Sequence record: NC_054934.1 | Direction: 5' to 3' (one strand) | Origin: Escherichia phage teqskov | Length of the DNA: 64,000 bases | Part shown: positions 50,869 to 64,000 of the stretch, one piece after another | How positions within the stretch are numbered: the stretch's first letter is position 1 | Layout of the letters: the number at the start of each line of letters is the position of its first letter | Translations under genes and position numbers: made by a program | Notes under the pieces: model-generated | Database searches by the model: none | Told to the model about the DNA's origin: nothing | The model's input: only the letters and a program-made list of their open reading frames with translations

Positions 50869-52071
50869 ATGAAAGTATGTATTTTTATGGCTCGAGGTCT
50901 TGAAGGTTGTGGTGTAACTAAATTTTCTCTTGAGCAACGTGATTGGTTTATTAAGAATGGTCATGAAGTAACTTTGGTTTATGCTAAAGATAAATCATTT
51001 ACTCGTAATTGCGCGCATGATTATAAATCATTTTCAATTCCGGTTTTATTGGCAAAAGAATATGATAAAACACTTAAGCTGGTAAATGATTGTGATATTC
51101 TAATTATCAATTCAGTTCCTGCTACTTCGGTTGAAGAAGACACTATTAATAACTATAAAAAAATTATTGATAACATTAAACCTTCTGTTCGTGTTGTAGT
51201 TTATCAACATGACCATTCTTCTCTTTCTTTGCGCCGAAATTTGGGATTAGAAGAAACTGTTCGTCGAGCTGATGTTATTTTTAGCCATTCTGATAATGGT
51301 GATTTTAATAAAGTTCTGATGAAAGAATGGTATCCTGAAACAGTTTCTCTGTTTGATGATATTGAAGAAGCACCGACAGTATATAACTTTCAGCCTCCTA
51401 TGGATATTGCGAAGGTTCGGTCAACCTACTGGAAAGATGTTTCTGAAATTAACATGAATATCAACCGTTGGATTGGTCGTACGACTACATGGAAAGGTTT
51501 TTATCAGATGTTTGATTTTCATGAAAAACATCTTAAACCTGCAGGACTAAGTACTATTATGGAAGGTCTGGAACGTTCTCCAGCGTTCATTCCTATTAAA
51601 GAAAAAGGAATTCCATACGAGTATTATCGTCTTCATCAAGTAGACCAAATTAAAATTGCTCCTAATTTGCCAACGCAAATTCTTGACCGTTATGTAAATA
51701 GCGAAATGCTTGAACGTATGAGTAAATCCGGTTTTGGTTATCAGCTGAGTAAGTTGGATAAAAAATATCTACAGCGCTCTTTAGAATATACTCATCTCGA
51801 GCTTGGTGCATGTGGAACAATTCCGGTATTTTGGAAATCTACTGGCGAAAATTTAAAATTCCGTGTTGATAATACTCCTTTGACCTCGCATGATAGCGGT
51901 ATCATTTGGTTTGATGAAAATGACATGGAATCAACATTTGAACGTATTAAAGAACTGTCATCTGATCGAACTCTTTATGACCGCGAACGCGAAAAAGCTT
52001 ATGAATTTTTGTATCAGCATCAAGATTCAAGCTTCTGCTTTAAAGAACAGTTTGACATTATTACAAAATAA
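50869..52071 (+). CDS. agt: DNA alpha-glucosyltransferase
   Basis: 400 aa; near-identical to remembered T4 alpha-gt (FMARGLEGCGVTKFSLEQRDWFIKNGHEVTLVYAKDKSF). Confidence 0.9.
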   Translation: MKVCIFMARGLEGCGVTKFSLEQRDWFIKNGHEVTLVYAKDKSFTRNCAHDYKSFSIPVLLAKEYDKTLKLVNDCDILIINSVPATSVEEDTINNYKKIIDNIKPSVRVVVYQHDHSSLSLRRNLGLEETVRRADVIFSHSDNGDFNKVLMKEWYPETVSLFDDIEEAPTVYNFQPPMDIAKVRSTYWKDVSEINMNINRWIGRTTTWKGFYQMFDFHEKHLKPAGLSTIMEGLERSPAFIPIKEKGIPYEYYRLHQVDQIKIAPNLPTQILDRYVNSEMLERMSKSGFGYQLSKLDKKYLQRSLEYTHLELGACGTIPVFWKSTGENLKFRVDNTPLTSHDSGIIWFDENDMESTFERIKELSSDRTLYDREREKAYEFLYQHQDSSFCFKEQFDIITK

Positions 52072-59027: not shown

Positions 59028-61724
59028 ATGAAAGAATTTTATATCTCTATTGAAACAGTCGGAAATAACATTGTTGAACGTTATATTGATGAAAACGGAA
59101 AGGAACGTACCCGTGAAGTAGAATATCTTCCGACTATGTTTAGGCATTGTAAGGAAGAGTCAAAATACAAAGACATCTATGGTAAAAACTGCGCTCCTCA
59201 AAAATTTCCATCAATGAAAGATGCTCGAGATTGGATGAAGCGAATGGAAGACATCGGTCTCGAAGCTCTCGGTATGAACGATTTTAAACTCGCTTATATC
59301 AGTGATACATATGGTTCAGAAATTGTTTATGACCGAAAATTTGTTCGTGTAGCTAACTGTGACATTGAGGTTACTGGTGATAAATTTCCTGACCCAATGA
59401 AAGCTGAATATGAAATTGATGCTATCACTCATTACGATTCAATTGATGACCGTTTTTATGTTTTCGACCTTTTGAATTCAATGTACGGTTCAGTATCAAA
59501 ATGGGATGCAAAGTTAGCTGCTAAGCTTGACTGTGAAGGTGGTGATGAAGTTCCTCAAGAAATTCTTGACCGAGTAATTTATATGCCATTCGATAATGAG
59601 CGTGATATGCTCATGGAATATATCAATCTCTGGGAACAGAAACGACCTGCTATTTTTACTGGTTGGAATATTGAGGGATTTGACGTTCCGTATATCATGA
59701 ATCGCGTTAAAATGGTTCTCGGTGAACGTAGTATGAAACGCTTCTCTCCAATCGGTCGAGTAAAATCTAAACTAATTCAAAATATGTACGGTAGCAAAGA
59801 AATTTATTCTATTGATGGCGTATCTATTCTTGATTATTTAGATTTGTACAAGAAATTCGCTTTTACTAATTTGCCGTCATTCTCTTTGGAATCAGTTGCT
59901 CAACATGAAACCAAAAAAGGTAAATTACCATACGACGGTCCTATTAATAAACTTCGTGAGACTAATCATCAACGATACATTAGTTATAACATCATTGACG
60001 TAGAATCAGTTCAAGCAATTGATAAAATTCGCGGGTTTATCGATCTAGTTTTAAGTATGTCTTATTACGCTAAAATGCCTTTTTCCGGTGTAATGAGTCC
60101 TATTAAAACCTGGGATGCCATTATTTTTAACTCATTGAAAGGTGAACATAAGGTTATTCCTCAACAAGGTTCGCACGTTAAACAGAGTTTTCCGGGTGCA
60201 TTCGTATTTGAACCTAAACCAATTGCTCGTCGATATATTATGAGTTTTGACTTGACGTCTCTGTATCCGAGCATTATTCGTCAGGTTAACATTAGTCCTG
60301 AGACTATTCGTGGTCAGTTTAAAGTTCATCCAATTCATGAATATATCGCAGGAACAGCTCCTAAACCGAGTGATGAATATTCTTGTTCTCCGAATGGATG
60401 GATGTACGATAAGCATCAAGAAGGTATCATTCCAAAGGAAATCGCTAAAGTATTTTTCCAGCGTAAAGATTGGAAAAAGAAAATGTTCGCTGAAGAAATG
60501 AATGCCGAAGCTATTAAAAAGATTATTATGAAAGGCGCAGGGTCTTGTTCAACTAAACCTGAAGTTGAACGATATGTTAAGTTCAGTGATGATTTCTTAA
60601 ATGAACTATCGAATTATACTGAATCTGTTCTCAATAGTTTGATTGAAGAATGTGAAAAAGCGGCTACACTTGCTAACACAAATCAGCTGAACCGTAAAAT
60701 TCTTATTAACAGCCTTTACGGTGCTCTTGGTAATATTCATTTCCGTTACTATGATTTGCGAAATGCTACTGCTATCACAATTTTCGGCCAAGTTGGTATT
60801 CAGTGGATTGCTCGTAAAATTAATGAGTATCTGAATAAAGTATGTGGAACTAATGGCGAAGATTTCATCGCAGCAGGTGATACTGATTCGGTATATGTTT
60901 GTGTAGATAAAGTTATTGAAAAAGTTGGTCTTGACCGATTCAAAGAGCAGAACGATTTAGTTGAATTCATGAATCAGTTCGGTAAGAAAAAGATGGAACC
61001 TATGATTGATGTTGCATATCGTGAGTTATGTGATTATATGAATAACCGCGAGCATCTGATGCATATGGACCGTGAAGCTATTTCTTGCCCTCCACTTGGT
61101 TCAAAGGGCGTTGGTGGATTTTGGAAAGCGAAAAAGCGTTATGCTCTGAACGTATATGATATGGAAGATAAGCGATTTGCTGAACCGCATTTAAAAATCA
61201 TGGGTATGGAAACTCAGCAGAGTTCAACGCCTAAAGCGGTCCAAGAAGCTCTCGAAGAAAGTATTCGTCGTATTCTTCAGGAAGGTGAAGAGTCTGTCCA
61301 AGAATATTACAAGAACTTCGAGAAAGAATATCGTCAACTTGACTATAAAGTTATTGCTGAAGTAAAAACTGCGAACGATATAGCGAAATATGATGATAAA
61401 GGTTGGCCAGGATTTAAATGTCCGTTCCATATTCGTGGTGTGCTAACTTATCGTCGAGCTGTTAGCGGTTTAGGTGTAGCTCCAATTTTGGATGGAAATA
61501 AAGTAATGGTTCTTCCATTGCGTGAAGGAAATCCATTTGGTGACAAATGCATTGCTTGGCCGTCGGGTACAGAACTTCCAAAAGAAATTCGTTCTGACGT
61601 ACTGTCTTGGATTGACTACTCAACTTTGTTCCAAAAATCGTTTGTTAAACCGCTTGCAGGCATGTGTGAATCGGCTGGTATGGACTATGAAGAAAAAGCT
61701 TCGTTAGACTTCCTGTTTGGCTGA
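59028..61724 (+). CDS. 43: DNA polymerase gp43 (family B)
   Basis: 898 aa; exo motif FDIE, polymerase motifs DLTSLYPS and AAGDTDSVY; near-identical to remembered T4 gp43. Confidence 0.95.
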   Translation: MKEFYISIETVGNNIVERYIDENGKERTREVEYLPTMFRHCKEESKYKDIYGKNCAPQKFPSMKDARDWMKRMEDIGLEALGMNDFKLAYISDTYGSEIVYDRKFVRVANCDIEVTGDKFPDPMKAEYEIDAITHYDSIDDRFYVFDLLNSMYGSVSKWDAKLAAKLDCEGGDEVPQEILDRVIYMPFDNERDMLMEYINLWEQKRPAIFTGWNIEGFDVPYIMNRVKMVLGERSMKRFSPIGRVKSKLIQNMYGSKEIYSIDGVSILDYLDLYKKFAFTNLPSFSLESVAQHETKKGKLPYDGPINKLRETNHQRYISYNIIDVESVQAIDKIRGFIDLVLSMSYYAKMPFSGVMSPIKTWDAIIFNSLKGEHKVIPQQGSHVKQSFPGAFVFEPKPIARRYIMSFDLTSLYPSIIRQVNISPETIRGQFKVHPIHEYIAGTAPKPSDEYSCSPNGWMYDKHQEGIIPKEIAKVFFQRKDWKKKMFAEEMNAEAIKKIIMKGAGSCSTKPEVERYVKFSDDFLNELSNYTESVLNSLIEECEKAATLANTNQLNRKILINSLYGALGNIHFRYYDLRNATAITIFGQVGIQWIARKINEYLNKVCGTNGEDFIAAGDTDSVYVCVDKVIEKVGLDRFKEQNDLVEFMNQFGKKKMEPMIDVAYRELCDYMNNREHLMHMDREAISCPPLGSKGVGGFWKAKKRYALNVYDMEDKRFAEPHLKIMGMETQQSSTPKAVQEALEESIRRILQEGEESVQEYYKNFEKEYRQLDYKVIAEVKTANDIAKYDDKGWPGFKCPFHIRGVLTYRRAVSGLGVAPILDGNKVMVLPLREGNPFGDKCIAWPSGTELPKEIRSDVLSWIDYSTLFQKSFVKPLAGMCESAGMDYEEKASLDFLFG

Positions 61725-61908: not shown

Positions 61909-62145
61909 ATGAAAATTGTTATGGGATGCTTAGCAGTTTGTTTAGTTGCATTAGCAGCAGTTCCATTTGTTAGTGTTGAAAATGATACTCAACCTGTGAT
62001 TGAATCTAGCACCGTTATTCACACTAATGGTAAAATATCAGTTAAAATTGATGATAATCTTCATGTGAATACAAATGGATCTTTAGGTGTGCAAATGGGT
62101 AATACCTGCATAAGCACTACTGGAGTAATTACTACTTGCATTTGA
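61909..62145 (+). CDS. small secreted protein
   Basis: 78 aa from ATG after SD GGAG; N-terminal signal-like MKIVMGCLAVCLVALAAVPF. Confidence 0.5.
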   Translation: MKIVMGCLAVCLVALAAVPFVSVENDTQPVIESSTVIHTNGKISVKIDDNLHVNTNGSLGVQMGNTCISTTGVITTCI

Positions 62146-62155
62146 GGAAATTATT

Positions 62156-62536
62156 ATGAAAATCGCTATTTTGGTTATTGCATTAGGTCTTACTGGTTGT
62201 GTAGCTCAAGGACCGGTAGTAAATCAGTCTGATGTAGGAAAAATTGTAAACTGTTCAAGCAAATTTTATAATCCTAATGTCAAGTGTTATAAAGAAGCTC
62301 CAAAGCAAACAGTCGAACAAATGCAGGCGAATTTTGACGAAGCTATTCGTCCAGATGAATCTGCTCAAGCATATCGTAATTCTGATGTAATTACACGCGA
62401 AGAAAAAATTGAAAACTACTGCGCCGAAATTTGGGCTAATTGGGCTAATAATTACCAATGGCGTACTGGTAAAAATGCTCCGATGGAGTATGTAGTGAAT
62501 TCTTATAATTCATGTGTAAAAAATTTGACTAAGTGA
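62156..62536 (+). CDS. predicted lipoprotein
   Basis: 126 aa; signal peptide with lipobox LTGC; several Cys in mature part. Confidence 0.55.
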   Translation: MKIAILVIALGLTGCVAQGPVVNQSDVGKIVNCSSKFYNPNVKCYKEAPKQTVEQMQANFDEAIRPDESAQAYRNSDVITREEKIENYCAEIWANWANNYQWRTGKNAPMEYVVNSYNSCVKNLTK

Positions 62537-62543
62537 GGAAAAC

Positions 62544-62795
62544 ATGGAAACTTTAGTAGCAGGTTCAATTTTTATGGTTTTAGTTTCAGGCGTGTTGGCT
62601 ATTATTATATACATGCTTCCATGGTTTATCGCCTTGATGCGTGGGTCAAAATCGACAGTAGGAATCTTTTTCACATCTTTACTGTTTAACTGGTCAATTA
62701 TTGGTTGGTTTATTACATTTATTTGGTCAATTGCGGGTGAAACTAAAAAATCTGTACAGCAAAATCAAGTAATTATCATCAGAGAGAAGGAATGA
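62544..62795 (+). CDS. imm: superinfection immunity protein Imm
   Basis: 83 aa two-TM protein; size and position upstream of gene 42. Confidence 0.75.
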   Translation: METLVAGSIFMVLVSGVLAIIIYMLPWFIALMRGSKSTVGIFFTSLLFNWSIIGWFITFIWSIAGETKKSVQQNQVIIIREKE

Positions 62796-62948: not shown

Positions 62949-63689
62949 ATGATTAACGATTATATGACAGTTGAAGAAATCCGTCTTGATTTGGGTCTTG
63001 CATTAAAGGAAAAAGATTTCGTAATTGATAAAACCGGTGTTAAAACTATTGAAATTATTGGTGCATCATTTGTAGCAGATGAACCTTTTATTTTTGGCGC
63101 TCTTAATGATGAATACATTCAGCGTGAACTTGAATGGTATAAATCTAAGAGCTTGTTTGTTAAAGATATTCCAGGTGAAACACCAAAGATTTGGCAGCAG
63201 GTAGCATCTTCTAAAGGCGAAATTAATTCGAATTATGGTTGGGCCATCTGGTCAGAAGATAACTATGCCCAATATGATATGTGTTTAGCTGAACTTGGTC
63301 AAAATCCTGATTCTCGACGTGGTATCATGATTTATACTCGTCCATCTATGCAGTTTGACTACAACAAAGACGGCATGTCAGATTTCATGTGTACGAATAC
63401 AGTACAGTACCTGATTCGTGATAAGAAAGTTAATGCAGTAGTAAGCATGCGTTCAAATGACGTGGTCTTCGGATTCCGTAATGATTATGCATGGCAAAAA
63501 TACGTATTAGATAAATTAGTATCTGATTTGAATGCAGGCGATTCAACTCGTCAGTATAAAGCAGGTTCTATTATATGGAATGTTGGAAGTCTTCATGTAT
63601 ATTCTCGTCATTTTTACTTGGTTGATCATTGGTGGAATACTGGCGAAACTCATATTGTGAAAAAAGATTATAACGGTGAGTGGAAATGA
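62949..63689 (+). CDS. 42: dCMP hydroxymethylase gp42
   Basis: 246 aa; thymidylate-synthase-like fold; matches remembered T4 gp42. Confidence 0.9.
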   Translation: MINDYMTVEEIRLDLGLALKEKDFVIDKTGVKTIEIIGASFVADEPFIFGALNDEYIQRELEWYKSKSLFVKDIPGETPKIWQQVASSKGEINSNYGWAIWSEDNYAQYDMCLAELGQNPDSRRGIMIYTRPSMQFDYNKDGMSDFMCTNTVQYLIRDKKVNAVVSMRSNDVVFGFRNDYAWQKYVLDKLVSDLNAGDSTRQYKAGSIIWNVGSLHVYSRHFYLVDHWWNTGETHIVKKDYNGEWK

Positions 63690-64000
63690 TTCAATTCGTA
63701 ATTCCGAGCTATCAACGTGTAGGGGCAGTTTCTGCCCTTGATATGTTTCCGACTGATTATGAACCTCATATCGTAGTACGTGAACATGAAGAAAAAGCTT
63801 ATTATGACGCCTATGGGTCTAGAGCTAAAATTATAACTATTCCTGATGATGTAAACGGAATTGCCGGTACTCGTAAAGCAATTACTGATATGTATGCAGG
63901 TCAACGAATCTGGATGATTGACGATGATACTACTATTCGTATGAGTTCAATGCGAAAAAGAGATGATCGTCGTTGCGTAGATAAAGTCAATCAATTGACT
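63686..64000 (+). CDS. glycosyltransferase, N-terminal fragment (runs off window end); not T4 beta-gt-like
   Basis: ATG overlaps gp42 stop; DXD-type motif WMIDDDT; sits in the beta-gt position but N-terminus unlike remembered T4 beta-gt. Confidence 0.6.
   Translation, partial: MIQFVIPSYQRVGAVSALDMFPTDYEPHIVVREHEEKAYYDAYGSRAKIITIPDDVNGIAGTRKAITDMYAGQRIWMIDDDTTIRMSSMRKRDDRRCVDKVNQLT

Follow-up and report, generated by a model that had tools for sequence, protein, structure and literature searches.

What occupies the slot behind gene 42 in this phage, where T4 carries its β-glucosyltransferase gene β-gt, and what would the encoded enzyme do to the phage DNA? The window, by which we mean the whole 64-kb stretch of DNA that was analysed, comes from the genome of a T4-like (Tequatrovirus) phage. 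At its right-hand end an ATG at 63686, lying inside GGAAATGA, shares a 4-base overlap (ATGA) with the TGA stop of gene 42, an arrangement that suggests translational coupling of the two genes. The frame then runs through 105 sense codons (63686-64000) without a stop, and it is missing from the program-made list of open reading frames because it runs off the end of the window. Its translation begins MIQFVIPSYQRVGAV, includes the stretches MIQFVIPSYQRVGAVSALDMF...RIWMIDDDTTIRM...VNQLT, and contains WMIDDDT at residues 76-82 (63911-63931); judged from its sequence, such an open reading frame is far beyond chance. In relatives the gene measures 843 bases or 280 codons, and about 175 codons lie beyond the window end. 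The first-pass annotation had described this start and the WMIDDDT stretch behind gene 42 accurately in every detail, with roughly one third of the gene in view. We are highly confident that the frame is the beginning of the ba-gt (ggt) gene of T2/T6-like Tequatrovirus phages and belongs to the pathway that makes gentiobiosyl-hydroxymethylcytosine (gentiobiosyl-hmC). The features on which the argument draws are collected in Table 1.

Table 1. Genes, motifs and the homology boundary discussed in the text (positions in the window).
Feature	Position	Strand	Basis or remark
a-gt, DNA α-glucosyltransferase	50869-52071	+	PF11440, E 4.3e-237
Gene 43, DNA polymerase	59028-61724	+	Name from relatives' annotation
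Small ORF, 82 codons	61897-62145	+	Between gene 43 and imm.1
imm.1	62156-62536	+	Name from relatives' annotation
imm	62544-62795	+	Name from relatives' annotation
Hydrophobic ORF, 49 codons	62792-62941	+	Between imm and gene 42
Gene 42, dCMP hydroxymethylase	62949-63689	+	PF00303, E 1e-15; gp42 in T2, AdolfPortmann, T6
Left boundary of T4-unlike segment	63671-63672		blastn of window against T4 region
ba-gt/ggt, first 105 of about 280 codons	63686-64000	+	β-glucosyl-HMC-α-glucosyltransferase, TAGT family; 3' end cut by window end
IPSYQR motif, residues 6-11	63701-63718	+	Family-invariant positions, profile alignment and model
DDD, residues 79-81 (DXD motif)	63920-63928	+	Family-invariant; end of predicted strand 74-77

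First, the surroundings of the frame place it among the ba-gt genes. The locus is arranged in T2, T6 and EH2 as it is in the window; in T2 and T6 ba-gt likewise follows gene 42 with an ATGA overlap, belongs to the Pfam and PHROG families found here, and shares its genome with an α-gt. The product of the gene 42 frame is a thymidylate-synthase-family protein (PF00303). The α-gt gene that the first-pass annotation had placed at 50869-52071 is indeed there and is full length, covering positions 1-354 of the 355 in the PF11440 profile. At the nucleotide level the window is homologous to T4 across genes 43, imm.1, imm and 42; the last base in the blastn alignment is 63671, 18 bases ahead of the gene 42 stop. 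In the genome of phage AdolfPortmann, which served as a proxy, homology to T4 is back 12 bases into uvsX; therefore a ba-gt cassette of about 0.9 kb replaces about 1.9 kb of T4 DNA comprising β-gt and segA. The T4 β-gt gene fills the same slot between gene 42 and uvsX, where it has the homing endonuclease gene segA as a neighbor; relatives lack segA at this locus. On the upstream side this synteny is seen in the window itself, where the start of ba-gt overlaps the gene 42 stop; on the uvsX side it is seen in relatives only. That the TAGT gene takes the site of the T4 β-GT gene has also been reported (PMC13390438).

Two small frames in the neighborhood deserve mention in their own right. The 82-codon frame behind gene 43 starts MENKMKIVMGCLAVCLVALAAVPF, with a signal-peptide-like N-terminus, and lies in a segment (about 61923-62155) without a nucleotide counterpart in T4; the annotations of T2 (T2_046) and AdolfPortmann call its product a hypothetical protein. 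The 49-codon frame ahead of gene 42 overlaps the imm stop. The AdolfPortmann and EH2 records list it as a hypothetical protein or phage protein; it is unannotated in T2 and T4 despite homologous DNA there.

Second, the visible part of the gene is nearly identical to known ba-gt genes. A search with its 315 bases gave 473 phage records that share at least 90% identity. Nine of these agree at every position (100%, 315/315 nt), including AdolfPortmann (Bas44), KAW1E185, Ozark, 303Ecol101PP, KMB22/23 and EH2, and all T2 records match at 99.7%. Where the matching records name the gene, they call it β-glucosyl-HMC-α-glucosyltransferase, ba-gt or ggt. At the protein level 104 of 105 residues are identical to T2 ba-gt, as the first-pass assignment to the T2/T6 arrangement had led one to expect, and 102 of 105, one gap included, to the T6 record AP018814. 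The fragment also matches PHROG 842 (E 3e-37), and it scores 29.7 bits against PF20691 (TAGT), whose Pfam gathering cut-off is 27.5; a full-length proxy reaches 38.9 bits over positions 2-205 of the 205 in the profile. No NCBIfam model was found for the ba-gt protein. The enzyme is a glucosyl-DNA β-glucosyltransferase, which we take to be EC 2.4.1.28.

The closeness of this one gene does not extend to the genome around it. No phage record covers window positions 39001-64000 at 99% identity or more over the 25 kb, and the best full-length matches to that stretch (RB18, Phaginator, fPS-65, 303Ecol101PP and KAW1E185) reach 96.5-97.5%. Thus 303Ecol101PP and KAW1E185 are identical to the window throughout the ba-gt fragment, yet are only 96.5-97.5% identical to it over the 25-kb stretch, a contrast typical of mosaic Tequatrovirus genomes.

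Third, it must be asked whether the gene might be a divergent T4-type β-glucosyltransferase, which would place a single β-glucose directly on hmC. The case for this reading is one of position, in that the gene sits after gene 42 as T4 β-gt does. The two enzymes are also alike in their UDP-glucose donor, their β-linked product and their role in DNA modification, whereas the acceptor of the T4 enzyme is hmC itself and that of ba-gt is α-glucosyl-hmC. All other lines of evidence point away from a T4-type enzyme. The nucleotide homology to T4 stops short of the gene, as described above. BLASTP against T4 β-gt returned chance matches for both the fragment (E 0.84) and the full-length proxy (E 0.56); the ba-gt protein has no match to PF09198, against which T4 β-gt scores 322 bits, and belongs to PF20691 instead. 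A tblastn search with T4 β-gt found no match at E<=10 anywhere in the 64-kb window. The first-pass annotation had described the frame as unlike T4 β-gt and had staked its reading on there being no full-length alignment between the two; none was obtained, either for the visible part or for the full-length gene of the relatives that are 100% identical over it. Chemical analysis points the same way, as the Durham Tequatrovirus phages that carry ba-gt show no β-glucosyl-hmC (PMC13390438).

The predicted fold separates the two enzymes further. A homologue search with the 105-residue fragment yielded only four fragmentary proteins, and usable homologues came from the search with the full-length proxy; the resulting family alignment holds nine full-length sequences at 32-99% identity. 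From this nine-sequence alignment a structure model was built for P0005, a protein 98% identical to the window fragment (mean pLDDT 71.8, pTM 0.74). Its C-terminal half is of low confidence, and residues 1-80, which lie inside the window, are modelled at pLDDT 85-95 as alternating strands and helices. A single-sequence AF2 model of a 156-residue fragment, P0001, had a pLDDT of 44.5 and was too poor for fold comparison. With the P0005 model, Foldseek returned TarP, WrtF and TarS at E values of about 2-4e-4, and the scores in the other fold search were 9.6 for cellulose synthase BcsA, 9.4 for GalNAc-T1, 9.1 for WrtF, 8.9 for both GnT-I and AvpGT, and 8.3 for TarP. Neither search returned a GT-B enzyme: every glycosyltransferase match was GT-A, and the rest were nucleotidyltransferases. 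In the model a single Rossmann-like domain, as in GT-A enzymes, carries the DXD motif behind its fourth strand, and the fold searches gave no sign of the two-domain GT-B fold to which T4 β-gt (PF09198; PDB 1JG7) belongs. Sequence comparison found no similarity between α-gt and the ba-gt fragment. The ba-gt protein belongs to the TAGT family and is a glycosyltransferase of GT-A fold with a DXD motif; it is not related to α-gt and T4 β-gt, which are GT-B enzymes, and we consider a T4-type enzyme at this locus to be extraordinarily improbable. The same assignment has been published for the T2/T6 enzyme, which was placed in PF20691/TAGT with a GT-A fold (AF3 model), as a sister to GT2 and with no similarity to α-GT or β-GT (NAR 2026, PMC13216743).

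Fourth, the conserved residues allow a provisional picture of how the enzyme may work. Across the nine homologues the invariant positions within the window include I6-P7-S8-Y9, R11, R32, G58-I59, T62-R63 and D79-D80-D81, and beyond it D121, D175, G206-G207, R212, E250 and R256. In the P0005 model IPSYQR forms strand 3-7 and the following loop (pLDDT about 85), and DDD comes directly after strand 74-77. The ba-gt protein has in common with the PF20691 TAGT family, which lies near CAZy GT2 (TarP, TarS, AvpGT), a DXD motif and, at the N-terminus, the motif IPxY(N/Q)R. Sequence similarity to enzymes of known structure is low: ba-gt is 8-18% identical to solved GT-A enzymes, and the PDB yielded no significant match to either the full-length protein or the family profile; the best was AvpGT at E 0.25, and the others were chance matches. 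In that weak match (9jma) the family profile aligns IPSYQR with IPTYNR, the nucleotide-binding motif of GT2, and the DDD stretch with LDDDD of the GT2 enzyme. By analogy with GT2 enzymes, then, D79-D81 may hold Mg2+ or Mn2+ together with the UDP diphosphate, the IPSYQR loop may contact the nucleotide, and the catalytic base may be an acidic residue past the window end, for which E174-D175, with its invariant D175, is the candidate. The stereochemistry can be put more firmly. The UDP-glucose donor is α-linked and the gentiobiose product is β-1,6; therefore ba-gt must be an inverting transferase.

How would such an enzyme fit into the modification of the phage DNA? In the proposed pathway gp42 would make hydroxymethyl-dCMP, which replication would incorporate as hmC; α-gt would then place an α-linked glucose on hmC in duplex DNA, and ba-gt would use UDP-glucose to add another glucose in β linkage at the 6-OH of the one already present, giving gentiobiosyl-hmC. 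The acceptor of ba-gt would be a sugar already on DNA, unlike the lipid, teichoic acid or protein acceptors of GT2 enzymes. A TET/JBP dioxygenase does not accompany the enzyme, since it is gp42 that supplies hmC, and does so at the level of the nucleotide. The outcome of this pathway is known from published work on close relatives. Deletion of ba-gt from T6 leaves only α-glucosyl-hmC and abolishes gentiobiosyl-hmC (Nature 2024, PMC11078745), and HPLC/MS of EH2 DNA found about one third hmC and two thirds α-gentiobiosyl-hmC, with little α-glucosyl-hmC (PMC13390438).

The EH2 result bears on a further possibility, namely that the enzyme is a TAGT with a specificity other than that of T2/T6 ba-gt, using another sugar or linkage or acting directly on hmC. 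The TAGT family is functionally heterogeneous, and it includes homologues paired with β-GT or standing alone (PMC13216743). That heterogeneity, however, concerns distant homologues at 28-50% identity rather than near-identical ones, and the gene at hand is, in its visible third, identical in DNA to that of EH2, where α-gentiobiosyl-hmC has been shown chemically, and 99% identical in protein to T2 ba-gt. A different specificity is therefore very improbable, and transfer of a second glucose onto α-glucosyl-hmC remains the preferred reading.

Fifth, the window stops at codon 105, and one may ask whether the gene is broken further on, in which case the DNA would carry only α-glucosyl-hmC and hmC. 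Damaged alleles are indeed on record, among them a TAG at codon 10 in the T6 record MH550421 and the frameshifted proteins P0003 and P0004. Against a pseudogene, no lesion is seen in the first 105 codons, where every family-invariant residue is retained, and the two genomes inspected among the nine records that are 100% identical over the fragment, AdolfPortmann and EH2, both hold an intact frame of 280 codons. We infer that the roughly 175 codons past the window end are likewise intact and regard a pseudogene as quite unlikely, allowing a small chance that this phage carries a lesion in the two-thirds of ba-gt beyond the window end.

The irregular alleles merit a description of their own. P0003, a "glucosyl transferase" of 87 residues from Enterobacter phage vB-EclM_KMB17, loses the reading frame precisely where the DXD motif lies (...GQRIWYCWYTSSYY). 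P0004, from a Logan assembly, begins only at M69, and past residue 200 or so its C-terminal tail is unrelated; frameshifted or misassembled ba-gt alleles therefore occur. In the T6 record MH550421 (L004:4951-4953, minus strand) the TAG at codon 10 is unique among 471 records, and ggt is annotated there as a shorter frame from M20, which would be without the first strand of the fold. The other T6 record, AP018814 (L005, about 1145-1153), has CAG at codon 10 and a 3-base deletion that turns DDD into DD (WMIDDTT). These are odd features for a phage famed for 72% gentiobiosylation; mutations in the stock, an amber marker and errors of sequencing are all conceivable sources. M20 was considered as the true start, following MH550421, and was rejected: the TAG of that record is private to it, and residues 1-11 hold family-invariant positions and the first strand of the fold. 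Also set aside was a hairpin at 63720-63740 (+ strand; GGGGCAG-TTT-CTGCCC), within ba-gt codons 12-18, which emerged from a terminator scan and at which a "terminator" is annotated in DalCa (MH992510). Its folding z-score is only -2.07 in a 101-nt context and its U-tract is poor, and it is probably not significant.

Sixth, the comparison with T2 raises the matter of its unusually low gentiobiosylation, classically about 5% in T2 against about 72% in T6, levels restated in a 2026 preprint (10.64898/2026.02.25.707755). The ba-gt proteins of T2 and EH2 differ at two residues only, R11H and P251S (in T2 LC348380, codon 11 at L002:4031-4033 and codon 251 at L002:4751-4753). R11, part of the IPSYQR loop, does not vary among the nine diverse homologues, and P251 adjoins the invariant E250. 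Over the first 105 codons T2 has H11, whereas the window (codon 11 CGT, 63716-63718), T6 and the family consensus have R11; the T2 form of the 91-base stretch with codon 11 occurs only in the seven T2 records and SV76 among 460 matching records. As EH2 is a high and T2 a low gentiobiosylator, R11H and P251S are therefore candidates for the classical 5% phenotype of T2. On sequence comparison we would tentatively assign the window, EH2 and T6 to a "high-activity" R11 form and attribute the difference between T2 and T6 to the two substitutions, an explanation that we find possible and rather doubtful. Differences in expression or in α-gt offer an alternative account of the low level in T2; the 86 bases 5' of the ba-gt start are identical in T2 and the window.

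Finally, what does the presence of ba-gt mean for the phage? Most Tequatrovirus phages combine α-gt with TAGT, and T4 is exceptional in this respect: phages typically pair TAGT with α-GT or β-GT, and the T4 combination of α-GT and β-GT occurs in 6 of 753 genomes (PMC13216743). The DNA of a phage with α-gt and ba-gt is expected to carry hmC, α-glucosyl-hmC and gentiobiosyl-hmC and no β-glucosyl-hmC. Gentiobiosylation would act as a counter-defence that masks α-glucosyl-hmC from glycosylases such as Brig1 and BapA; in T6, deletion of ba-gt raises the sensitivity of both phage and DNA to Brig1 (PMC11078745), and the same kind of effect has been described for BapA (10.64898/2026.02.25.707755). The predicted defence profile is thus one in which mature DNA would be less sensitive to Brig1/BapA-type glycosylases and sensitive to GmrSD-type enzymes. 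The ba-gt gene is here an ordinary, well-characterised gene at its usual site, already known and published, and since both the modification pattern and the defence behavior have been reported for T2, T6 and close relatives, they carry little weight as a discovery. The one forward-looking point is why T2 gentiobiosylates poorly: if the two substitutions are indeed the cause, the R11 found in the window would predict a gentiobiosylation pattern like that of T6 and EH2.
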